64,000 bases of DNA from Bacteriovoracaceae bacterium. GTDB taxonomy: Bacteria; Bdellovibrionota; Bacteriovoracia; Bacteriovoracales; Bacteriovoracaceae. Shown here piece by piece: positions 52,838-63,537 of this stretch. Made by a program: the position numbers and the translations under genes. A model generated the notes under the pieces. It made no database searches and was not told where the DNA came from. It was given only the letters and a program-made list of their open reading frames with translations. Location: the NCBI GenBank assembly GCA_016784965.1, contig JADHTQ010000004.1:17990-81989 (forward strand), given 5' to 3'. The stretch's first letter is position 1, and each line of letters begins with the position of its first letter.

Positions 52838-54953
52838 TGAAAAACGATATTCATATGCTTATTTACTAAAATATTTCTACTCATTTGTAAAAAAATACAT
52901 CTTACAAGAATTTGCCGTTACACTCTTAATTGGACTAAGTATCACCGTTAATATCGGCATTCCTCTTATCAATAAAACCTTGGTAGATGATGCTATTATT
53001 GCCAAAGATCTATCTCTGCTTTTTAATATCTTATATATCTACATCGGTATCATTTTGGGGGGACAGCTAATTAACGTCACTATGGAGTACTTGCAAAACA
53101 GTGTGCAAGAGAAGATCTCCATGGATATTTATAAAATGCTGTTTAAAAAAATGCTTAGTATGAAGATGCTACCTCTTAACAACTTTTCCAACACAGAGAT
53201 AGTTAATCGCTTTATCATGGATGCAGATGCCATCAAATCTTTAATCGCTGACTTTTTTATTACGGTACTCACCCAAATAATTTATTTTTTGGGTATCCTG
53301 GTGGTGATGCTGTCGCTTTCATGGAAGCTAACTATACTGGCATTAATTCCAGTCCCCATTTACCTGGTCACTTTTTTATTCTTTAATAAAAAGATCAGAG
53401 TTATTTCTAGGCTCCTTCGCAATAAGTTTGATAACTTAACCCAATTTATTAATGAGAGTTTTTTGGGGTCTACTGAGATAAGAATTTCAGGTAGCACCAA
53501 TTTTGTGTATTCAAAGTTTCAAGATAAAATCCTCTCTATTTTCAATGTGGCAATGAAAAGTGTCGTCCAAAGTAATGCCATTTCAGTAGTCATAGGTCTT
53601 ATAACCGCTTCGGGCAACTTGATTTTATGGTTTTATGGAGGATATTTAGTTATCGAAGGCCAGCTAAGCTTGGGCACCCTCTTTGCGCTTTCTGCTTATA
53701 TCGGTCAATTATACGATCCCATAAATATCTTGGCAGGTAGAAATTTTAAAATTCAATCTTCAATCTTTGCCATCGAGCGAATCCATGATTTTTTAAACCA
53801 ACCCCAGGAGCCCCTTTGGGATCAAAGCGAGTCTAAATATGAAAAAGGCTTTAGGGATTCTATCAAAGTATCAGGACTATCATTTAATTACCCAGAATCA
53901 ACTGATCTTGTAATCGATAATAAATCATTTGAGATAAATAAGGGTGATCGAATTTTGTTAACCGGTGCTAATGGATCGGGCAAGTCTACATTCATCAATA
54001 TTTTACTTCGCTTATATGATCACCAGCTAGGTGTAATTAAAATTGATAACACAAACATCCAACAAATTCCCATCCAGCAGTATAGAAGCCTATTTGCTTA
54101 TGTGCCTCAACACCCCTTTTTATTTGAAGGAACTGCTACCAGTAACATCTCGATGTTAGATACAAACGCTAACTTAAACAATTTTAAAAAATTCTTATCT
54201 AGGCTGCCTTTTTTAGACTTCTTCTCTAAAAAAAGTGGTCCCTATTCGGTCAGCAACAATGGCAACAACTTATCAGGTGGACAAAAGCAAAAGCTCAGCC
54301 TACTTAGATCTCTATACAAAGATGCACCAATAATCATTATAGATGAAGGGACTTCCAATATTGATGCCGAGTCTCTTTCTAAATTTGATCAATTTATTGA
54401 AAATAATTTGCAAGACAAAACTATCATCAGGGTTTCCCATAACCAAAATGAACATCTAAAAAATTATAAATTTATCCATTTTGACCGCATCATGCCCCAA
54501 GTATATCAAGATAAAATTATAAAATTAATACAAGAAAATAAACTAGACAGTGCAAAAGAGGCAATTGAGTCCCTGTTAAAGCATTATCAAGACATCAATT
54601 TATTTAAAAACTTGGCCTTTATAAAGTATATGCAAGGCAATTTCTCTGAATGCCTTACACTTAATCAAAAGGCATTACAAATTGATCCCGGTGATGTCTA
54701 CGCCACCAAGGGGCTAGGTCTGGCCTTCGCTAAACTGGGAGACTTAGAAAAAGGAATAGAGCATTTAAAGTCGGCCCAAACCCTTGATTCGACATACTTT
54801 GATCCATTTTACGACATGGCCGTAATATACTACGAAAATGGACAATTTGAAAATGCCTTAAAAACACTAAAGTTGACTCCTGTTAGCTCAAATGAGGAGC
54901 GGGACTTAGTTGCAAACTTTATCCAGAGTATAAAAAAAGATGACAAGATATAA
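52821..54953 (+). CDS. ABC exporter (fused TMD-NBD) with C-terminal TPR extension
   Basis: Six predicted TM helices, Walker A GANGSGKST, signature LSGGQKQKLSLLRSL and Walker B IIIIDEGTS. A ~150-aa TPR-like tail follows (FKNLAFIKYMQGNFSECLTLNQKALQIDP...). No N-terminal C39 peptidase domain. Overlaps the rSAM gene by 17 nt. Confidence 0.8.
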   Translation: MNKINDEKRYSYAYLLKYFYSFVKKYILQEFAVTLLIGLSITVNIGIPLINKTLVDDAIIAKDLSLLFNILYIYIGIILGGQLINVTMEYLQNSVQEKISMDIYKMLFKKMLSMKMLPLNNFSNTEIVNRFIMDADAIKSLIADFFITVLTQIIYFLGILVVMLSLSWKLTILALIPVPIYLVTFLFFNKKIRVISRLLRNKFDNLTQFINESFLGSTEIRISGSTNFVYSKFQDKILSIFNVAMKSVVQSNAISVVIGLITASGNLILWFYGGYLVIEGQLSLGTLFALSAYIGQLYDPINILAGRNFKIQSSIFAIERIHDFLNQPQEPLWDQSESKYEKGFRDSIKVSGLSFNYPESTDLVIDNKSFEINKGDRILLTGANGSGKSTFINILLRLYDHQLGVIKIDNTNIQQIPIQQYRSLFAYVPQHPFLFEGTATSNISMLDTNANLNNFKKFLSRLPFLDFFSKKSGPYSVSNNGNNLSGGQKQKLSLLRSLYKDAPIIIIDEGTSNIDAESLSKFDQFIENNLQDKTIIRVSHNQNEHLKNYKFIHFDRIMPQVYQDKIIKLIQENKLDSAKEAIESLLKHYQDINLFKNLAFIKYMQGNFSECLTLNQKALQIDPGDVYATKGLGLAFAKLGDLEKGIEHLKSAQTLDSTYFDPFYDMAVIYYENGQFENALKTLKLTPVSSNEERDLVANFIQSIKKDDKI

Positions 54954-55878
54954 CTTTATAACCTTACTTACAATAGCTACTTTTTTAATCAACACAAGCG
55001 CTACTGCTCTTAACATTACCCTCGACCACAATTTATCTGCCAAACTTGAGGCGGGATATCTCTATCAAAAAAGCTCTAAGACCTCTAAGTTTTTTTTACA
55101 AAGGTTCTATTTGGGCCAAAATTTATTTATTGATCAACAAAGTAAAATCAAGCTTGGAGCAGACCTATATGCTGATAACTATCAAAGTAGTTCCAAGCAG
55201 TTTAAGCTCATCTACGGCTACTATGAAAAAAAACTTTCATCTATTTCAAAAAGTAAATTTAGGATTGGTTTGCTACAAACCCCATGGATTAGCTGGATGG
55301 ATAATTTCTGGGGTAATCAAGTCATCTCAAGTTCGACCCTTTTGCAAATGCAGCACACTCACAGTCAAGTAGACACGCTACCTGAAAAAAGTGAAGTAGG
55401 ACTTTCTTTTGAACAATGGAAAAATAAATTTAATTACTACTTAAGTGTTACTAACAAACTAGATGCCTTAGATCCTACATTTTCTTTTAGAATGGGTTAT
55501 TTTCCCTACGTAAATGAGAAATCACTTAGTAAAAATAGCATCCTTGTATACAGCAGATTAAGTACCAACAGACAAGTTGAATCCAATATTGTTGGAGGTG
55601 TGATCTCCACTGGGTACCAAGATACTTTTCACCTCTACTTTGAGTCAATGTACTTCTTTTTGCCCAAAATTCACTCAAGTGGTATCTACCTAAATGTCAA
55701 GTTACTAGATGAGCTCTACAGTTTTTTTAGATATGTATATAATGATGATAACCTGAACCTCGATTCATCTAATGTTTTTGATATGGGCTTTAAGTATAAA
55801 TTAGACAAATCAACGACGCTATTTCTTTCTTTGGCGAATAGATCCGCCTGGTCCCTCTTTCTAACAGCAAAATTTTAA
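54940..55878 (+). CDS. outer-membrane beta-barrel (porin-like) protein
   Basis: Signal peptide (ITLLTIATFLINTSATA), alternating beta-like segments and a terminal Phe (LFLTAKF). Overlaps the ABC gene by 14 nt. Confidence 0.5.
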   Translation: MTRYNFITLLTIATFLINTSATALNITLDHNLSAKLEAGYLYQKSSKTSKFFLQRFYLGQNLFIDQQSKIKLGADLYADNYQSSSKQFKLIYGYYEKKLSSISKSKFRIGLLQTPWISWMDNFWGNQVISSSTLLQMQHTHSQVDTLPEKSEVGLSFEQWKNKFNYYLSVTNKLDALDPTFSFRMGYFPYVNEKSLSKNSILVYSRLSTNRQVESNIVGGVISTGYQDTFHLYFESMYFFLPKIHSSGIYLNVKLLDELYSFFRYVYNDDNLNLDSSNVFDMGFKYKLDKSTTLFLSLANRSAWSLFLTAKF

Positions 55879-55882
55879 AAAT

Positions 55883-57043
55883 TTAGATCCAGACTCCGGG
55901 TATCTGCTCGCCACAGGAGCACTTGCCACCTTGTAATAAATTATTTTGGATACTATATCCATTTCTTTTAATTACATGGGTTTTGCATTTTGGGCAGATT
56001 GTATCTTGATAGTCACTACCTGGGACATTTCCTACATAAACAAAATGAAGGCCTGCAACTTTGGCCACTCTGTAGGCTTCCTCTAAAAGGGGGATCGGGG
56101 TAGAAGGAAGATAGCGCAAATTGTACGCTGGATGAAATCGAGAAAAATGCAGTGGCACATCCCTGCCTAAATTTTCTACAATCCACTTACACATCTGCTC
56201 TATATCTTTTAAATCATCTGAGTGGTGGGGAACAACTAACCTGGTGATCTCTATCCAAACATCATTTTGTCGCATAATCTCAAGGCCCTTTAAAACTGGG
56301 GCAAGCTGAGCATTGGTCATTTTTTTATAAAAAGAATTACTAAAACTTTTTAAATCTACATTGGCGGCATCAATTGATTTACATAACTGCTTTAAGGGTG
56401 ACTCGTTTATATATCCCGCTGTTACTAACACATTTTTAACATTATTGTTTTTGGCCACAAGGGCCGTATCTTCTACATATTCATAAAAAATTATGGGCTC
56501 TGAGTAGGTATAGGCAATTGAAGTAAGTTTTTTCGCTTTTGTTAGCTCCACTACCTTTTGTGGCATTAGGTCCATATTTGTAGTTTCGCCTGGACGAGAT
56601 TGAGATATTTCCCAGTTTTGACAGTTTGAGCAGCGCAAATTACAACCGGCAGTGGCCAAGGATAAAATACCTGTTCCGGGTAAAAAATGATAAAGGGGCT
56701 TTTTTTCTATGGGATCAATGTGCAAGGCACAGGGGTTACCATAGGCCACAGTATACAACTGATTATTTTTAACTACCCTTGTTCGACAAAAACCTCGATC
56801 ATTTTCGGCCAATATGCATTGATGAGGACATAAACTACATTCCACCATACCACCAACACTACTTTGCCATAGGGCCTTTTTAGACCACTTCCACAAATTT
56901 GCTGGTGCATCGTTATAAAACCCTACTCTGAGCCCATAACGATTATTTCCAGTTATTATGTCATTGATCGTATAAGCGCCTAAAGCTGTGCCACCTGTGG
57001 CTATGATGAACTTTTTTAAAAATGTTCGTCTGGTGACTGACAA
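55883..57043 (-). CDS. AmmeMemoRadiSam-type (PflA-like) radical SAM enzyme carrying an N-terminal twin-arginine signal
   Basis: CSLCPHQCILAENDRGFCRTR, CNLRCSNCQNWEIS (CX3CX2C) and C-terminal CPKC...CSCGEQIPGVW match that family's pattern. The N-terminus (M)SVTRRTFLKKFIIATGGTALGAYT fits the (S/T)RRxFLK Tat consensus. TTG start 7 nt after AAGGAA. Confidence 0.7.
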   Translation of the reverse strand: MSVTRRTFLKKFIIATGGTALGAYTINDIITGNNRYGLRVGFYNDAPANLWKWSKKALWQSSVGGMVECSLCPHQCILAENDRGFCRTRVVKNNQLYTVAYGNPCALHIDPIEKKPLYHFLPGTGILSLATAGCNLRCSNCQNWEISQSRPGETTNMDLMPQKVVELTKAKKLTSIAYTYSEPIIFYEYVEDTALVAKNNNVKNVLVTAGYINESPLKQLCKSIDAANVDLKSFSNSFYKKMTNAQLAPVLKGLEIMRQNDVWIEITRLVVPHHSDDLKDIEQMCKWIVENLGRDVPLHFSRFHPAYNLRYLPSTPIPLLEEAYRVAKVAGLHFVYVGNVPGSDYQDTICPKCKTHVIKRNGYSIQNNLLQGGKCSCGEQIPGVWI

Positions 57044-57121
57044 GATTTCATTCCTTAAAAAAGGTTGGAATCATTTATTCTATCATGAAAACTTGTCTTG
57101 TCATTATTTGCAAGAAGGTAT

Positions 57122-58099
57122 TTAGAAGGCTTTTTTGATCACATTGTCTCGAATGGGGATTGGATCTTGCAAATATTGGTTCAGGGCAGAAACTAGCTTT
57201 TCAATGCTTTCTGATTGTCCCTGTAGAGATCTTACAAGATGTGACATATTTACTACGCCACCTTTATCTTTTGCATGATACCCAACTTTATCCCACAAGG
57301 CCTTAAGGCACTCTTCAAAATCCTCAATGGTTTGGTCTTGCAAGGCATCCGTTGCAAAAAATCCATTTAGTAAGGTTAACACTATAGAGAAAGTAATACC
57401 TACAATACTTGAGTTTAGGGCAAAAGAAATTTGGGTTAAAAAACTTGCAATTACCTCTTTGGCCGATCCCGGATCACCAACTAAGTCAAGTCCGCCAATA
57501 ATGGGCAGAGCACCCATCATTCCCAAAAATGTTCCAAGAATACCAAACACAATCATCAGGCCTGGAATAATTTGTAAAAAGCGACTAAGTGAAGGAATTG
57601 GAAGTATTCCAAATAAAACATTACTATTATTTGATTGCGAAAATATTCTGTGGGAAAACTCTTCAAAATTTGGAGTTCCATCACTTTGGCTGTACAATTC
57701 TTTATGGTGAACATCTTGCACTAGTTCATACAAGCTTATATCATATTTAAAAATAACATCCAACCTAGTCCTACTTTTATCAAACCTTCTGTGTTGATGA
57801 GCTCTTCTTTTGGTTACATACGAATCAAGTGCCTTATCACAAACCTTGTGTACAACCTCTTTATACCTATCGATTATTGACTCATTGTCATGTATATCAT
57901 CTTCTAAGGTTCCCTCTTTGTTGTAATAGTCCATTTCCTTTTTAATAAATACGACAAACCTATTATCGATCTTAAAGCTTTGTTTAATTAACACTTTAAG
58001 GATTATTGAGACAAAAAAGACCACTATCATAGCAGGGACTAAGTTGTTCATGAGACCTAGAACATAAATATTATAAATTTCGCGAAAAATATTTTCCAT
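57122..58099 (-). CDS. MotA/TolQ/ExbB-family proton-channel protein (3-TM ExbB-like topology)
   Basis: IIPGLMIVFGILGTFLGMMGAL carries the family G-x-L-G-T-x-x-GM motif. A second C-terminal TM pair partner is ISFALNSSIVGITFSIVLTLLNG. One N-terminal TM helix and a ~130-aa loop. RBS GAGG lies 13 nt after the upstream stop. Confidence 0.7.
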   Translation of the reverse strand: MENIFREIYNIYVLGLMNNLVPAMIVVFFVSIILKVLIKQSFKIDNRFVVFIKKEMDYYNKEGTLEDDIHDNESIIDRYKEVVHKVCDKALDSYVTKRRAHQHRRFDKSRTRLDVIFKYDISLYELVQDVHHKELYSQSDGTPNFEEFSHRIFSQSNNSNVLFGILPIPSLSRFLQIIPGLMIVFGILGTFLGMMGALPIIGGLDLVGDPGSAKEVIASFLTQISFALNSSIVGITFSIVLTLLNGFFATDALQDQTIEDFEECLKALWDKVGYHAKDKGGVVNMSHLVRSLQGQSESIEKLVSALNQYLQDPIPIRDNVIKKAF

Positions 58100-58112
58100 C
58101 TCTATTACCTCA

Positions 58113-60620
58113 TCACAGTTTTATAGTGTCTAAATATTCTAAATCCTTCTTTGTGAGTGCTTTTACCAGGGAAAGTTTAATTTCTACTCTCCTTGATAAT
58201 CGACAATCATAGGGCCCACATCTTTGTTTATCTGCAACACTGGCCAGCTGTCGTGTAGGAGCAGATAAAACAATGGACTCCGCGTGAGAGCTGCCCTTTA
58301 TAGATGCTATATTTTGCATTTTCCCTCTGTTTTTTAAACTGATGGGAAAAGTTTTATGCTTGTTTATAAATAAAAAGCGGTAAACAGCGGCAGCACGCTG
58401 AAGACTTAGGTCCATATTGTAAGAATGAGCTACCTTATTTACTGCCGTCGGAGAAACATAATGTCCAACGTATCTGGGACTTGAGTGCCCTTCGATGAGA
58501 ATCTTGTCCACTTTGGCCCTTATTTGTTTGTTAGAAAAAAAGTACCTTAAAATTATTTTAGAGGTACGCAAAAGCCTCATTTTCATCCTGGTGCTGAGTA
58601 GATAACTATCAACTTTAAAAAGTAAGTCATTTACAAAGACAAATGAAATTTCATTTTTAATTCTGTCATATTTGACTATGGCATTACCACCAACTGCTCT
58701 TGTTAGTAAGGTCTCTAACTTGTCATAGTTGTTTACTTCTGCAGGGGTGAGAGTTCTATATTTTTGCAGCTGTTGGTTAGCTCGCCTCAAATGACCGAGG
58801 CTCTCTCTTAAAGTGGAGTTGTCCTTACTTAGATCTCTATTTTTTTTGCCTAATCTATCAAGCCCCAATAACTTTAAAAGAGACTTCTCCTGCTGTTTGG
58901 CCTGCTTTGCAAAAGCTCCCCTTTTTAGAGTTTGAAATGGATCAACAGCAGACTGAGCTCGTACAATTTGAGCAGATTTTTCTTTGGCCTTTACTAGTTG
59001 TCTTCGCAGTTTTCCAATTACATTTCTGCTGTTTTGAATTGCCTTATCATTTTCACCAATCATCTCTTTGAGCTGCCCATTGGTCTTTGCTATGCCTTCT
59101 AACTTCTGTCTAACTTTACCACCCATAAGCTTACTCTCGCCCAGGGCATTCTTCAGATCACCAATTTGTTTACGCAGAGCTGACAACATTTCTTGCTGTC
59201 TTTTGACCTGACCGGCAGCATTTTTATTTAACTCCTCCAGTGCCTGCTTTTGACTTTTTGCAACTGAAGCTGTTTTGCGACTTGCCTCTATCATTTTTTC
59301 TTTGGCATGTAGTTGGGCAGTCTTCTCGTTGATTTCATTTTGATTCTTCTGCAGCATCTGTTTATATTTTTCATTAGCCGCTTTTAAATTATTTAACTCA
59401 AGTTGTGCGGCTGTTGCTGTTTTGCGACTTGCCTCTATCATTTTTTCTTGTGCATTTAGTTGGGCCGTCTTCTCATTGATCTCATTTTGATTCTGCTGCA
59501 CCATTTGTTTATATTTCTCATTGGCGACTCTTAAAGTATCTAACTCTTTTTGAGCACTGGCATTTGTCATCTCCCTTTGTTGCAGGGCACTTTTTGCTTC
59601 CGCCATGTCTTTTGAAATTTTATCAATTTTAGCTTTTCTTATTTTTGCTAGCTCTATACTTTTTTGATATTCATCTTTATAGTCTTCTAGTACCTTCTTA
59701 CTATGAACTAGCTCTAATTTAGCGAGTTTTGCGGCCTTGATTAGTTTATCTGTCTGCTTAATTAGCTTTTGCTTCTTACTAATTTCAAGTTGTTTTTGTT
59801 CAATTGTTTGCTTTAATTTACTATTAACTTCCTCAGTTTTAGCAAACTTTTGTTGAACTTGTGAACTCTCCAACTCTCTTTGCTTTAAGCTTTCTTTCAT
59901 CACGTCAATTTTTTTACTTAGCTGTGTTATTTGCTCTTGTTTGTTCTGTGATAGTTGTTCAACTTTTTTATAATCTTCTTCGACAATCTTTTTCTGCTGC
60001 GCCATGGCCTTTTCATGGTCCCTGGCAGCTTTTATCATTTTATTTTTAATCCTTATGACTTCTGCTTTTTTAGATATTTTTTCCTTATTATTTTCAATCT
60101 GTCTTTCATACTCTCGCTTTACATCTTCAAGTTTTTTGAGCTTCACTTTATTTTTTACTACCTTGTCAGCTTCAACTTTTAAATCACTCTCAAGCATCTT
60201 AACTTTTTGAGCAAGGGCCTCAAGTTTGGTGTGCTTTCTTTTACTAAGTGCCGCAATTTTCATGTAATCGGTCTTATAATCTTCAATGATCTTCTTTTGA
60301 TTTTTAACCGTCTCAACAAAGGTATTCATCTCCTGAAGCTTTTGTTGCCAATCTTCCATATCCTTATACGTCTGCTCTAAGGACTCGGTTCTTTTTTGTA
60401 CATTATGGGTAATTTTAGTTGGGATATCTTTGTCAACGTTGATCTTTTCGTCTTCAAATTCCTGCTTTAAAACAGCAGTATTGATCCCTTCTTTTACCGC
60501 ACTAAAAATGTACAACATCAAAAAGATGATAAACAAGACAGTAAAAAGATCACTGTAGCTTGCCCAAAACGTACCATCTTCACCTTGTTTCTTTTTTAAT
60601 TTTTTTGCTAATTTATTCAT
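58113..60620 (-). CDS. MotB-like protein: MotB-type TM/plug with conserved Asp + ~570-aa coiled coil + OmpA-like peptidoglycan-binding domain
   Basis: WASYSDLFTVLFIIFLMLYIF matches the MotB W-x-x-Y-x-D-x-x-T-x-L TM motif. A long K/E/Q-rich heptad region follows. C-terminal IEGHSSPRY...DLSLQRAAAVYRFL...LSRRVEIKL is OmpA-like. Confidence 0.7.
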   Translation of the reverse strand: MNKLAKKLKKKQGEDGTFWASYSDLFTVLFIIFLMLYIFSAVKEGINTAVLKQEFEDEKINVDKDIPTKITHNVQKRTESLEQTYKDMEDWQQKLQEMNTFVETVKNQKKIIEDYKTDYMKIAALSKRKHTKLEALAQKVKMLESDLKVEADKVVKNKVKLKKLEDVKREYERQIENNKEKISKKAEVIRIKNKMIKAARDHEKAMAQQKKIVEEDYKKVEQLSQNKQEQITQLSKKIDVMKESLKQRELESSQVQQKFAKTEEVNSKLKQTIEQKQLEISKKQKLIKQTDKLIKAAKLAKLELVHSKKVLEDYKDEYQKSIELAKIRKAKIDKISKDMAEAKSALQQREMTNASAQKELDTLRVANEKYKQMVQQNQNEINEKTAQLNAQEKMIEASRKTATAAQLELNNLKAANEKYKQMLQKNQNEINEKTAQLHAKEKMIEASRKTASVAKSQKQALEELNKNAAGQVKRQQEMLSALRKQIGDLKNALGESKLMGGKVRQKLEGIAKTNGQLKEMIGENDKAIQNSRNVIGKLRRQLVKAKEKSAQIVRAQSAVDPFQTLKRGAFAKQAKQQEKSLLKLLGLDRLGKKNRDLSKDNSTLRESLGHLRRANQQLQKYRTLTPAEVNNYDKLETLLTRAVGGNAIVKYDRIKNEISFVFVNDLLFKVDSYLLSTRMKMRLLRTSKIILRYFFSNKQIRAKVDKILIEGHSSPRYVGHYVSPTAVNKVAHSYNMDLSLQRAAAVYRFLFINKHKTFPISLKNRGKMQNIASIKGSSHAESIVLSAPTRQLASVADKQRCGPYDCRLSRRVEIKLSLVKALTKKDLEYLDTIKL
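59269..59562 (-). repeat. tandem duplication, 2 x 147 nt (49 aa), inside the coiled-coil region
   Basis: GCTGTTTTGCGACTTGCCTCTATCATTTTTTC... recurs at 59269 and 59416. The protein copies are ANEKYKQMVQQNQNEINEKTAQLNAQEKMIEASRKTA and ANEKYKQMLQKNQNEINEKTAQLHAKEKMIEASRKTA. Confidence 0.85.
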
Positions 60621-60690: not shown

Positions 60691-63537
60691 TCATCGCGCC
60701 AAGCGACTGAAATTAGTTACTATGCCAATAGGACACAGCAGACGACAAAAACTTCTGCGAATAAATATAGACAAAATATTGAAAAAAATGACAGCACCCA
60801 CGATTGTAGCACTGGTGGTGTAGCTGTTATGAAAAAAATAATTATACCAGTCAAAATTAGATGAAGACAGCGATTTAGAGGGACCATCAACTTTTATATA
60901 TAGCCCAATAACCACAATGACAATTACAGCTGAAACAAAGCTGATCAACTTTGATTTTTTTAAACTACTGCGACAAATTTGGGCCTGACCATCTTCTAAA
61001 GTGCCGATGGGACACATTCCATAGCACCACATCTGGCGGTCTAAGTTGATAAGCAGTGCCGCTGGGATAAAATATGCTCGCATAATGCCAAAAACACACT
61101 TTCTAGGACATGCATGACAAAAAATATAAGGTACACTAAAGTAGCATCTAAACAATGGATAAATTGCTAAAGGCCAAAAAGCAAAAAAATAAATCCATGA
61201 AGTATACTTCACATTGAATTGCCATTTGGGGTTGTAGGCGACAGTAATTTTCCAAGCAAGTATTATCAACAAAACATAGTGCAACCAGGGCCTAAGAGAA
61301 AAGGCATACACAATTGCATTGGTTTTTGGTATAACCATTGAAAGTCCAATCCCCCAAAAGATAAATAACATCAATCCATAACTTAAAAATTGCTCTAAAT
61401 TTACGTCCTTAAATGGCCTATAAGCGGATGTAACTTTTGGGATTACAACTAATCCCAAAATTGATGTGATCTTTATAAGCATAATGATCAACAAGGACTT
61501 GTGAATTCCCAAATAGGGGATCATAAATGCACTTATTAAAAATGCTCCCAGCGCTCCTCCCAAAAAATCTAAAGCATAGACAAATCCAGCGGTTTCAGTG
61601 GCGTTTACGGGTGACGTTTTTGCAATGTAGGCCAACTGGCCCCCCAATAAAATACCAAATAGGGTGTTATAAACTGGTGTTGCAAATGCTGAAGATAAGG
61701 GGCCAATTACAATTACAAAAATAAACAAAACAATCAAAAAGTCAGCTTTTAAAAGCAGCCTGGAGGTGTTTAACTTAGATCCAAAGAAGGCACCAATTGC
61801 CAAGCCAAGAATAAAACATGTAATAATAAAACTTAGTTGGTTGTAAAGATATCCAAAACGTATTTGGTATAGCAAAATGAGAATTACTTGCATTCCCATT
61901 GCACTAAAGCTACTAGACAAAAGAGTAAATGAATCCGCAAGCTCACTGCTTTTTGCTAATAAAATAAAGACAACAATAACAATTCCCAAAATTAATAATA
62001 TGGGAATTAAAAGAGTTGCATCTAGCTTTTTTAACCAGTATTGAAAATGATAGTAGTATCCAATGGGTGATAGATCCCGATTTACAAGTGAGTTCGACTG
62101 CACTAAAACTTTTGCCTGTCTTAAGCGATCTGGGGTTAAGATACTTTTTAGATAATTGGAATTGACAAACTTGGTATCTAACTTCTCTTTTTTAATTTTG
62201 TCACCAATGTTGTAACTTAAAGCACTAGCAGATGCCAGAAAATAGTTTTGACCCCCTGGAATTATTATTATCTGCTCAAAACAATTTGCCAGGGCCTTAT
62301 AAACTGATGATGAAAATTGCTTTAACTCTTCAGAGTCGTAATTGGCAGAACTGCTAAGGGCAAAAGACAAAATACCACCTTTACCAAGTGCACCTTTTAC
62401 AATTTTAAAAAATTCTTGAGTATAAAACCTTCCAATTTGTGCATTGATTGGATCGGGCAGATCAATTATAACGACATCGTATTTATGCTCACCTGAAGTG
62501 TTTGCCAAAAATTTGATAGCATCACCACTAATGAAATTAACTTTTGGTTTAGTGATAGTTGATGCTTGTTTTTTGGCAAGAGCTAAAATTAATGGGTTTT
62601 GTTCTACCAGATCAATACTGTTAGCGTCATGGTATTTGGCAACTTCAAATATCAAATTATTAACACCTCCAGAAACAAGCAAAACCCTCTTAGGCAAGGG
62701 GTGTTGAATCATGGCATAATGAACTATCTCTTCTGACTGGCCAACATGAGGTATTGAAGCAATTGGAGTTCCATTTTCATAAATACTTACTTGACCTCTA
62801 TCTTCAGTTATAGCAACAACACCATAAGGAGTTGATTGATGTAGCAATATTTTTTTTGTGGGATATTGTGCTTTTAGTATTTTTTCTTCTAAGGAACCGC
62901 TCACAATTACAACCGGTACAACAATGGCCAGCAAAGTGGCAACTATGCTTAAGCTCTTATACTGGTAGTAATAAGTTAAAACTGCGGCCACAAGCAAGTT
63001 TATTACACACAACAAGACCAATGTTTGGAAGGAGTCCAAAAAATAAACAAGACAAAAACTAAAAAGCAATCCCCCAACTAAATCGCCAAGAGAATCTAGA
63101 AAATATATTTTAGCAACTCCTGCACCTTCTTGATAATCCTTAGTGATTATAAAAACAAAAAAGGTCATTAGGGCACCAGAGAGCAAACAAATTGGCAAAA
63201 GTCCCACAAAAGAGAGCCAAAAGGCTTGAAACAATCCGACAGAAATGCCTACAACAATGATACTTTTGTAAATCGTTAACGCCCAAAACAAAAGCAGTGG
63301 CAAGATGGCGAGGATAAATTGACAAATAATTAAAAGGACTTTTGTATTTTTAATCTTCTGGCCAAATTGGCCAATAAATGCACCCGTGCCTTGAAGAAGC
63401 GCCCAGTTGCCTAAAACCAGACCAATGGTTAGCTCATTGCCAGAAAATAGTGTGAGAAATTCTCTAAGAAAAACAAACTGAGTGATTAAAGCAGAGATTC
63501 CAAGTGAAGTGATACACAAATATATTACATAACTCAT
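60691..63537 (-). CDS. polytopic membrane fusion: N-terminal multi-TM + spermidine-synthase-like (SAM-fold) domain + second multi-TM block + C-terminal CX3CP (NapH/NosR/CcoG-like) module
   Basis: VLLVSGGVNNLIFEVAKY...DLVEQNP...YDVVIIDLPDP...FYTQEFF are SpeE-like motifs flanked by many TM helices. The C-terminal ~200 aa contains FCHACPRKC, WCYGMCPIG and FCRLLCPIG between TM helices. Confidence 0.65.
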   Translation of the reverse strand: MSYVIYLCITSLGISALITQFVFLREFLTLFSGNELTIGLVLGNWALLQGTGAFIGQFGQKIKNTKVLLIICQFILAILPLLLFWALTIYKSIIVVGISVGLFQAFWLSFVGLLPICLLSGALMTFFVFIITKDYQEGAGVAKIYFLDSLGDLVGGLLFSFCLVYFLDSFQTLVLLCVINLLVAAVLTYYYQYKSLSIVATLLAIVVPVVIVSGSLEEKILKAQYPTKKILLHQSTPYGVVAITEDRGQVSIYENGTPIASIPHVGQSEEIVHYAMIQHPLPKRVLLVSGGVNNLIFEVAKYHDANSIDLVEQNPLILALAKKQASTITKPKVNFISGDAIKFLANTSGEHKYDVVIIDLPDPINAQIGRFYTQEFFKIVKGALGKGGILSFALSSSANYDSEELKQFSSSVYKALANCFEQIIIIPGGQNYFLASASALSYNIGDKIKKEKLDTKFVNSNYLKSILTPDRLRQAKVLVQSNSLVNRDLSPIGYYYHFQYWLKKLDATLLIPILLILGIVIVVFILLAKSSELADSFTLLSSSFSAMGMQVILILLYQIRFGYLYNQLSFIITCFILGLAIGAFFGSKLNTSRLLLKADFLIVLFIFVIVIGPLSSAFATPVYNTLFGILLGGQLAYIAKTSPVNATETAGFVYALDFLGGALGAFLISAFMIPYLGIHKSLLIIMLIKITSILGLVVIPKVTSAYRPFKDVNLEQFLSYGLMLFIFWGIGLSMVIPKTNAIVYAFSLRPWLHYVLLIILAWKITVAYNPKWQFNVKYTSWIYFFAFWPLAIYPLFRCYFSVPYIFCHACPRKCVFGIMRAYFIPAALLINLDRQMWCYGMCPIGTLEDGQAQICRSSLKKSKLISFVSAVIVIVVIGLYIKVDGPSKSLSSSNFDWYNYFFHNSYTTSATIVGAVIFFNILSIFIRRSFCRLLCPIGIVTNFSRLAR

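Follow-up and report, generated by a model that had tools for sequence, protein, structure and literature searches.

A gene within the 64-kb window, the whole 64,000-nucleotide stretch of Bacteriovoracaceae bacterium DNA that was analysed, encodes a radical SAM enzyme of the AmmeMemoRadiSam family that carries a conserved twin-arginine (Tat)-type signal at its N-terminus; its relatives, partner proteins and fused versions point to a location outside the cytoplasm, where this chemistry has not, to our knowledge, been shown. Radical SAM enzymes form one of the largest enzyme superfamilies, all characterised members work in the cytoplasm, and their chemistry requires SAM, a reductant near -450 mV and protection from oxygen. 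If these enzymes work where they appear to be sent, bacteria must have ways of delivering SAM and low-potential electrons to the periplasm, and this would also give the first functional handle on the Memo/AMMECR1 system, whose human homologues are disease-linked and have no agreed biochemical function. We found no paper describing Tat-signal radical SAM enzymes, this clade or AmmeMemoRadiSam function, although we cannot exclude that the one paper known to discuss Memo-AMMECR1-radical SAM contexts (Burroughs et al. 2019, JBC, PMC6664185) mentions signal-bearing forms.

An AmmeMemoRadiSam-family enzyme with an N-terminal extension

The ORF encodes a protein of 386 amino acids that scores 387.1 bits on the profile TIGR04337, against a cutoff of 220, with a match that covers residues 58-385, so that residues 1-57 are an extension. 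The features of the gene, and those of its conserved neighbour, are listed in Table 1. The original prediction, which proposed a radical SAM enzyme with family-specific N- and C-terminal Cys motifs, a TTG start behind a good Shine-Dalgarno sequence and a consensus Tat signal, was supported in each of these sequence-level claims. The TTG is the first start codon after the upstream stop, and the next in-frame Met is residue 66, which would remove sequence conserved in all homologues. Although the start is TTG rather than ATG, the possibility that it is mis-called, and that the RR motif is untranslated leader sequence, is very remote, since residues 1-57 are conserved at the protein level in more than 100 homologues, with the RR region conserved across phyla.

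Table 1. Coordinates of the gene, its signal and its neighbours (positions of the window)
Position (strand)	Feature	Observations
55883..57043 (-)	amrS-like gene, AmmeMemoRadiSam-family radical SAM enzyme with N-terminal Tat-type signal	AF2 model, pLDDT 91.8
56975..57043 (-)	Signal region, residues 1-23: n-region MSVTRRTFLKK, h-region FIIATGGTAL, c-region A20-L-G22-A23	AF2 helix at residues 5-30; h-region hydropathy 1.53
57014..57034 (-)	Twin-arginine motif T-R-R-T-F-L-K (residues 4-10)	R5/R6 in 103 of 103 aligned homologues, F8 in 96, K/R10 in 102
56873..56938 (-)	Clade-specific N-terminal extension of the mature enzyme (residues 36-57, YGLRVGFYNDAPANLWKWSKKA)	Absent from cytoplasmic short forms, which start at 'MKEA'; G41, F42, D45, P47, L50 and W53 conserved in at least 86% of homologues (83-98% for W53 to F42); pLDDT 94, packs on the core
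56786..56839 (-)	Auxiliary cluster motif C69-x2-C72-x3-C76-x9-C86	Conserved in 82-100% of exported forms (C76 and C86 99-100%, C72 94%, C69 82%) and 95-100% of cytoplasmic forms
56621..56644 (-)	Radical SAM cluster motif C134-N-L-R-C138-S-N-C141	100% conserved in all three groups compared
55913..55996 (-)	C-terminal CX2C...CXC (C350/C353/C375/C377), a zinc-ribbon or cluster site	
57051..57056 (-)	Shine-Dalgarno AAGGAA	7 nt before the TTG
57077..57104 (-)	Promoter-like site (ATGACA-16-TAGAAT with TG) in the 78-nt gap upstream	7 such sites in the region against 5.0 expected, not above chance
57122..60620 (-)	MotA-like and MotB-like genes between the two conserved partners	Lineage-specific insertion, not part of the system; no homologue (E<=1e-5) in any of 167 related loci
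60691..63537 (-)	948-aa partner membrane protein: 7 TM, SpeE-like AdoMet-fold domain, 7 TM, NapH-like CX3CP module	Adjacent to the radical SAM gene in all close homologues
62023..62853 (-)	SpeE-like Rossmann domain (residues ~229-505), predicted to face the periplasm	Fold resembles spermidine synthases, TM ~0.7
60691..61440 (-)	NapH-like C-terminal module	CHACP at 807, CYGMCP at 838 and CRLLCP at 931

The catalytic core is not relaxed in the exported forms, in which the radical SAM and C-terminal Cys ligands stay at 99-100% (90-100% in every group), and key SAM-motif residues also hold, with T179, Y180 and K232 at 100%, E182 at 92% and D230 at 88%. The closest solved structure, in fold (TM 0.82 on the target, PDB 3cb8) as well as in sequence (E 4e-7), is pyruvate formate-lyase activating enzyme (PDB 3cb8, 3c8f, 8fo0), with which the protein studied here shares a partial TIM-barrel radical SAM core; PFL-AE acts on a protein substrate. 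Identity is nevertheless only 14-15%, PFL-AE is cytoplasmic, and the protein studied here has an extra N-terminal 4-Cys motif and a C-terminal Cys ribbon. Scores on the glycyl-radical enzyme activase profiles TIGR02493 and TIGR02494 were 62.2 bits against 231.75 and 38.7 bits against 174.35, and no glycyl-radical enzyme was found in the window or in related loci. No haem-c CxxCH motif is present in the window protein.

The Tat-type signal is conserved and marks one clade

The segment T4-R5-R6-T7-F8-L9-K10 fits the S/T-R-R-x-F-L-K consensus, and it is the only convincing RR-type N-terminus among the 57 window ORFs of 100 amino acids or more, the one other pattern match having no signal-like sequence. 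Profile searches of isolated N-termini placed the 38-residue segment of this protein exactly at the TIGR01409 cutoff (16.7 bits against 16.7), while a 59-residue segment scored 15.3 bits and the Pfam model PF10518 gave 13.1 bits against 22.7; we note that the signal is short, with 4 residues before RR. In the family, 58 of 96 N-termini hit TIGR01409 at E<=1, and others hit the formate-dehydrogenase, hydrogenase small-subunit and Rieske Tat-signal models. The motif [S/T]-[K/R]-R-x-F-[L/I]-[K/R] occurs in 70 loci from many phyla, Bacteroidota using KR rather than RR. The median hydropathy of the h-region is 1.71, against 2.73 for the Sec signals of neighbouring Memo-AMMECR1 genes (p=1e-17).

Signal-bearing enzymes form essentially one clade of 92 rows, of which 83 are Tat-like, 6 are hydrophobic and 3 have no signal, and the label requires 9 changes on the tree against a shuffled mean of 54. 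A few relatives carry Sec-like rather than Tat-like N-termini, which is hard to reconcile with export of a folded Fe-S enzyme. The canonical AmmeMemoRadiSam enzymes (33 outer rows; TIGR04337, with TIGR04335 AMMECR1-like and TIGR04336 Memo-like partners) are about 325-340 amino acids long, carry no signal and have no SpeE-like neighbour, and the function of even this canonical system is unknown.

A plausible cleavage site is formed by A20-x-G22, which is small at -3 in 86% and at -1 in 97% of homologues and favours cleavage after G22 rather than after A23, but the site is not settled and an uncleaved anchor is not excluded. A lipoprotein reading of the 'GGC' in homologues was rejected, since the Cys lies only about 5 residues after the n-region and the window protein has no Cys there.

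Partner proteins and natural fusions suggest an exocytoplasmic location

Only three gene families recur in the related loci, and no conserved ferredoxin, chaperone or transporter was found among the other neighbours. A Memo/AMMECR1 partner is present in 40 of 54 Tat-type loci and next to the closest homologues (loci L003, L087 and L088), and 33 of 35 assessable Memo-AMMECR1 fusions beside Tat-type genes have hydrophobic signals, many with a lipobox. No Memo/AMMECR1 gene was found by tblastn within the 64-kb window, which was the only part of this genome searched, and no TatA-like ORF was found among the window ORFs.

The 14-TM SpeE-like protein lies within 3 kb in 47 of 54 Tat-type loci, and in the closest homologues the two partner genes are adjacent or overlapping. 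Its soluble domain is predicted to be outside on two independent arguments, namely the alternation of K+R counts over 50 homologues, combined with AF2 helices, and the presence in Planctomycete homologues of exactly one TM between the second 7-TM bundle and an FMN_bind domain. The topology arguments rest on hydropathy and the positive-inside rule, not on experiment. The C-terminal module scores 20.5 bits on Fer4_5, just under the Pfam cutoff of 22, and matches NapH models weakly (E 4e-4), while Planctomycete homologues score 49-60 bits and also carry FMN_bind.

Natural fusions also place the radical SAM domain on the same side as exocytoplasmic FMN-binding domains. In one protein (P0126) an anchor is followed by FMN_bind and the radical SAM domain, with no TM between them, and in three others (P0130, P0137 and P0148) FMN_bind, a NapH-like module and one extra TM precede the radical SAM domain, with 6 TMs between and alternating K/R loops; one weak helix in P0130, missed by the hydropathy peak finder, was counted by hand and by homology to P0137. 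DsbD_2, beta-propeller and CBM_11 fusions were also identified, as well as a signal-bearing Memo-AMMECR1-rSAM triple fusion. Notably, the FMN-binding domain of this architecture was shown experimentally to be exocytoplasmic in PceC (PMC5928378), and NapH-like plus FMN-binding modules are described as extracytosolic electron-transfer devices (PMC8238504).

We consider it somewhat more likely than not that the enzyme (AmrS) folds and receives its Fe-S clusters in the cytoplasm and is then targeted by the Tat pathway, so that its catalytic domain ends up on the periplasmic side of the inner membrane, either released after cleavage near G22/A23 or held by an uncleaved signal anchor. There it would belong to a three-part, outward-facing system with the 14-TM protein, whose NapH-like CX3CP module is the likely route for electrons across the membrane, and a Sec-exported or lipoprotein Memo-AMMECR1 fusion. 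Export itself, electron delivery to the auxiliary cluster and SAM supply, either bound to the enzyme or delivered by the SpeE-like transporter-like protein, are inferred, and SAM and low-potential reductants are not known in the periplasm. Because the fold is that of PFL-activating enzyme, a protein substrate such as the Memo-AMMECR1 partner is our preferred guess.

The N-terminal helix could also be an uncleaved membrane tether that keeps the enzyme in the cytoplasm, near the Fe-S/CX3CP face of the SpeE/NapH-like protein, with RR as just a positive n-region or a chaperone-binding remnant. SAM and reductants are cytoplasmic, the CX3CP motifs of NapH-type modules are cytoplasmic, judging from their positions and from NapH topology, and could feed such an enzyme, and AF2 models a single long helix. 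In addition, a sister clade (35 rows, mainly Planctomycetota) has the same SpeE-like and exported Memo-AMMECR1 partners but a signal-less, presumably cytoplasmic, radical SAM enzyme, and the three proteins therefore need not share a compartment. Co-variation of SpeE-domain topology with radical SAM location was rejected, as the proteins of the sister clade align from residue 1 with the same 7+7 TM plan. We nevertheless regard the tether as unlikely, since a positive N-flank before a single helix predicts an N-in/C-out orientation, the full Tat consensus and not merely the charge is conserved, the h-region (1.5-1.7) is too weakly hydrophobic for a typical anchor, the partners look exported, and the FMN_bind and NapH-like fusions put the radical SAM domain opposite the CX3CP loops; vestigial Tat motifs such as that of NarG, moreover, appear to lack an h-region.

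SAM supply and electron delivery

A more far-reaching possibility is that radical SAM chemistry runs catalytically outside the cytoplasm, the enzyme being reduced across the membrane by the NapH-like module (in relatives, by a covalently flavinylated FMN domain acting as a tethered, flavodoxin-like donor) and supplied with SAM by the 14-TM protein, whose outward-facing AdoMet-fold domain would bind or hand over SAM or remove 5'-deoxyadenosine, and acting together with exported Memo-AMMECR1 on an envelope substrate. The evidence does not exclude this, but it remains doubtful.

Alternatively, the enzyme could be exported without its SAM-dependent step turning over outside, either performing its radical reaction in the cytoplasm and carrying the product out, or leaving pre-loaded with one SAM and firing once after receiving an electron from the NapH-like module, for example to activate or modify one Memo-AMMECR1 molecule. 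This would remove the SAM-supply problem, and is in line with the retained SAM motifs, the resemblance to an enzyme that acts on a protein partner, the 1:1 occurrence of the genes, the triple fusions, in which one turnover in cis would suffice, and the export of folded, cofactor-loaded proteins by Tat. It does not explain, however, why a second AdoMet-fold domain faces outward on a transporter-like protein in 47 of 54 loci, stoichiometric use of a 386-aa Fe-S enzyme is costly, and there is no precedent, so that we hold this alternative to be improbable.

Comparison with related systems

The partner protein carries CX3CP/Fer4_5 motifs as do the NapH/NapG, NosR and RdhC (PceC) membrane electron-transfer modules, of which NapH probably pairs with NapG, a Tat-exported periplasmic Fe-S protein (a topic covered in PMC3538955 and PMC3712460). 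In the present case the client is a radical SAM enzyme rather than a respiratory reductase, and the module of the window lacks the FMN domain and the C-terminal ferredoxin domain and is fused to a SpeE-like 14-TM protein; quinol-level electrons would be too high in potential for a radical SAM cluster. The same protein matches membrane-bound spermidine-synthase-like models (NF002956, PRK03612, 135 bits; NF037959, 'fused MFS/spermidine synthase', 48 bits), but the former score is below the equivalog cutoff of 472, the GGGDG loop is SGGxxG, and the catalytic D-x-x-D-P is N-L-P-x-P in most family members.

The anaerobic sulfatase-maturating enzymes (AtsB/anSME), radical SAM enzymes that appear to serve exported proteins, offer a model for the signal-less sister clade, in which a cytoplasmic enzyme could act before its partner is exported. 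They are SPASM-domain enzymes with no signal peptide, and the match here is only 15 bits.

Since two foreign genes separate the radical SAM gene from its usual upstream partner, and no Memo-AMMECR1 gene lies in the window, it could be argued that in this genome it is an orphaned or decaying remnant that may have no function. This is very unlikely, although the rest of the genome was not searched, since the ORF is intact with every invariant catalytic residue, has a good Shine-Dalgarno sequence and a promoter-like site upstream, and the SpeE/NapH-like partner is also intact. Several Tat-type loci elsewhere (L001 and L005) likewise lack an adjacent Memo-AMMECR1.

Identification of the radical SAM gene

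The ORF encoding the radical SAM enzyme starts at the first possible start codon, a TTG, which sits 7 nt downstream of AAGGAA. A profile search showed that NCBIfam TIGR04337 (AmmeMemoRadiSam system radical SAM enzyme) matches residues 58-385 at 387 bits against a cutoff of 220, while all glycyl-radical activase models scored far below their cutoffs. By score and motifs the protein is a true member of TIGR04337, and not a glycyl-radical activase.

Residues 1-57 are therefore an extension, which comprises MSVTRRTFLKK, a match to the S/T-R-R-x-F-L-K consensus, followed by a weakly hydrophobic stretch (FIIATGGTAL), a small-residue motif (A20-L-G22-A23), a linker, and a segment (YGLRVGFYNDAPANLWKWSKKA) that AlphaFold packs onto the core at a pLDDT of about 94. 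The overall pLDDT of the model is 91.8, with a helix at residues 5-30 and a weak linker at residues 31-40. The closest solved fold is that of pyruvate formate-lyase activating enzyme (PFL-AE; TM 0.82, 14% identity), and no structure of this family has been solved.

Coordinates of the radical SAM gene, its neighbours and the sister system (positions in the window unless a locus is named)
Feature	Coordinates	Strand	Remarks
AmmeMemoRadiSam-family radical SAM gene	55883..57043	-	386 aa
MotA/ExbB-like gene and MotB/OmpA-like gene with a giant coiled coil	57122-60620	-	between the SpeE/NapH-like gene and the radical SAM gene
SpeE-like polytopic membrane protein	60691-63537		948 aa
Convergent gene	54940-55878		putative outer-membrane barrel of the neighbouring peptide-maturation cluster
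Stop codons of the radical SAM gene and the convergent gene	55878-55885		4 nt apart; no terminator-like hairpin between them
Sister system, example from Planctomycetota (loci L094-L118)	L095:12838-16779

Conservation of the Tat-type signal

In order to establish whether the N-terminal motif could have arisen by chance, we first examined close homologues. The best 120 (54-64% identity, about 390 aa) almost all carry RR plus a hydrophobic region, and the exceptions look like truncated gene calls. In an alignment of 103 sequences, R5 and R6 are invariant, F8 is present in 96 and K/R10 in 102, while the A-x-G motif is small at -3 in 86% and at -1 in 97%. These data indicate that the signal is not a chance occurrence and that the start is correctly assigned.

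We then turned to a wider sample of species genomes, with 163 distinct loci. Of these, 83 are Tat-like (29 RR, 46 KR, 6 RK, one KK and one RQ), 6 carry a more hydrophobic, Sec-like N-terminus, and 74 have no extension. The twin arginine is systematically K-R in the 46 Bacteroidota and Ignavibacteriota loci and R-K in a group that is mainly of Desulfobacteraceae type, although the rest of the Tat consensus (S/T, F, L/I, K) is kept. The consensus over 70 loci is [I/M/L]-[S/T]-[K/R]-R-x-F-[L/I]-[K/R]. Notably, the hydrophobic core is much weaker than in the Sec signals of neighbouring genes in the same loci (median 1.71 vs 2.73, p=1e-17), in keeping with the usual difference between Tat and Sec signals.

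Independent Tat-signal HMMs also recognise these N-termini: TIGR01409 hits 58 of 96, and the formate dehydrogenase, hydrogenase small-subunit and Rieske Tat-signal models hit as well. The signal of the window's own enzyme fits the sequence definitions of a Tat signal, but it is short and only just reaches the TIGR01409 cutoff, its segment scoring exactly at that value, and export remains a prediction. Among 57 ORFs of the window this is the only convincing RR-type N-terminus, since the one other pattern match has no signal-like sequence.

Phylogeny of the catalytic cores

A tree of 162 catalytic cores shows three layers. An outer set consists of 33 short enzymes with no SpeE-like neighbour, and nested inside is a clade of 127 (aLRT 91) that splits in two. 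One branch has 35 sequences, 34 of them signal-less and mostly from Planctomycetota and Myxococcota, while the other has 92, of which 83 are Tat-like, 6 hydrophobic and 3 have no signal. The window's enzyme groups with five RR-type sequences (aLRT 99). The signal has therefore been kept across a deep, multi-phylum clade. We note that contigs binned as DPANN archaea (Nanoarchaeota, Woesearchaeota; loci L007, L062, L120 and L131) carry bacterial-type cassettes, two of them with Tat-like signals and SpeE-like neighbours, which may be related to binning contamination or gene transfer.

The enzyme has not been relaxed. The radical-SAM and C-terminal Cys ligands stay at 99-100% in the presumed exported clade, and the auxiliary-cluster Cys at 82-100%. 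The non-Cys SAM-motif positions largely hold as well, with Q142, N143, T179, Y180, E188, K232, E265 and D276 at 100%, E182 at 92% and D230 at 88%.

Conserved gene neighbourhood

Only three gene families recur around Tat-type genes, namely the radical SAM gene itself (82 loci), a SpeE-like polytopic membrane protein (63 loci) and a Memo-AMMECR1 fusion (50 loci). In the five nearest relatives the SpeE-like gene (975-1012 aa, with Fer4_5) sits immediately upstream of the radical SAM gene, often overlapping it, and in three of the five a Memo-AMMECR1 fusion follows. The window has the same membrane protein, but here it is separated from the radical SAM gene by the MotB-like/MotA-like pair. This pair has no homologue in any of the 167 related loci, so it looks like an insertion that split the operon. 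No Memo or AMMECR1 was found within the window.

The sister clade makes use of the same partners. In Planctomycetota a signal-less radical SAM gene is followed by a Memo-AMMECR1 with a lipobox or TM anchor, and then by a 1300-aa protein (7TM - SpeE-like - 7TM - TM - FMN_bind - 2x Fer4_5, NosR-like). The radical SAM enzyme appears to be cytoplasmic in this system even though the membrane protein and the apparently exported Memo-AMMECR1 are shared, indicating that co-localisation is not obligatory.

Predicted membrane topology

Three lines of evidence, all computational as regards the proteins studied here, bear on which side of the membrane the enzyme is located. First, the Memo-AMMECR1 fusions beside these genes nearly all begin with Sec-type signals, many with a lipobox (33 of 35 assessable).

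Second, we analyzed the topology of the SpeE-like protein. AlphaFold gives 7 TM helices, a spermidine-synthase-like domain, 7 more helices and then a low-confidence C-terminus, and the soluble domain matches SpeE structures at a TM of about 0.7. Over 50 homologues, K+R counts alternate cleanly between loops in both bundles, which puts the SpeE-like domain on the non-positive, periplasmic side. Independently, homologues from the sister clade (Planctomycetota, Elusimicrobiota and Thermodesulfobacteriota MAGs) continue into FMN_bind plus two Fer4_5 domains, a NosR/RdhC-like module, and in the two with clean TM predictions (loci L098 and L080) there is exactly one helix between the second bundle and FMN_bind. 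The FMN-binding domain of that architecture is exocytoplasmic by experiment in PceC (PMC5928378) and is treated as extracytosolic across bacteria (PMC8238504), which places the SpeE-like domain outside as well by prediction.

Third, the representatives of the family (1405 clusters at E<=1e-30) include natural fusions that constrain topology. One (P0126) consists of an anchor, FMN_bind and radical SAM, with no helix in between. In three others (P0130, P0137 and P0148), FMN_bind is followed by a NapH-like module with two CX3CP, one extra helix and radical SAM; six helices separate FMN_bind from the enzyme and the K/R-rich loops alternate, and the enzyme therefore lies on the FMN side, opposite the CX3CP loops. 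The FMN domains keep the (S/T)GAT flavinylation motif. Further representatives carry DsbD_2 and radical SAM (P0122 and P0131), a signal, a beta-propeller or CBM_11 and radical SAM (P0123 and P0124), or a signal, Memo, AMMECR1 and radical SAM (P0127). However, some relatives, including Omnitrophota-type sequences and P0124, P0127 and P0123, carry Sec-like, strongly hydrophobic N-termini rather than Tat motifs. These would export an unfolded, multi-cluster Fe-S enzyme, which we cannot explain.

A model for an exported radical SAM enzyme

Taken together, the most likely course of events is that the enzyme is loaded with its clusters in the cytoplasm, is recognised by TatBC through the TRRTFLK motif, and is then moved so that the catalytic domain faces the periplasm. 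What distinguishes it from the short enzymes of the outer set is the extension with its Tat-type signal and the SpeE-like neighbour. We found no paper describing Tat-signal radical SAM enzymes or an exported AmmeMemoRadiSam system, in a literature search that did not extend to Burroughs et al. 2019, and the survey of extracytosolic flavinylated NapH-like systems (PMC8238504) does not mention radical SAM, Memo, AMMECR1 or spermidine synthase. Radical SAM catalysis outside the cytoplasm would matter a great deal if confirmed, but we regard this reading as possible rather than likely.

Electrons probably reach the N-terminal auxiliary cluster through the NapH-like module of the 948-aa protein, for which a likely precedent is NapH with its Tat-exported Fe-S partner NapG. 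Quinol-level electrons, however, would not reduce a radical SAM cluster. In relatives, a tethered flavinylated FMN domain could play the role that flavodoxin plays for cytoplasmic radical SAM enzymes. As regards the substrate, the PFL-AE-like fold and the cis fusions make a protein partner, Memo-AMMECR1, our preferred guess, held at low confidence.

The supply of SAM is the open problem of this model. The SpeE-like domain, predicted to face outward, keeps the Gly-rich loop and the acidic ribose and adenine contacts (E312 and D339, nearly invariant), but in most members it loses the aminopropyl-transfer D-x-x-D-P, and it may therefore bind an adenosyl ligand rather than make polyamines. The alternative is that each enzyme carries one SAM out and fires once. 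Notably, within residues 286-365 of the window's own protein the SpeE-like domain keeps D-L-P-D-P where most family members have N-L-P-x-P, while its Gly loop is SGGVNN instead of GGGDG, and the clade nearest the window may retain some transferase chemistry.
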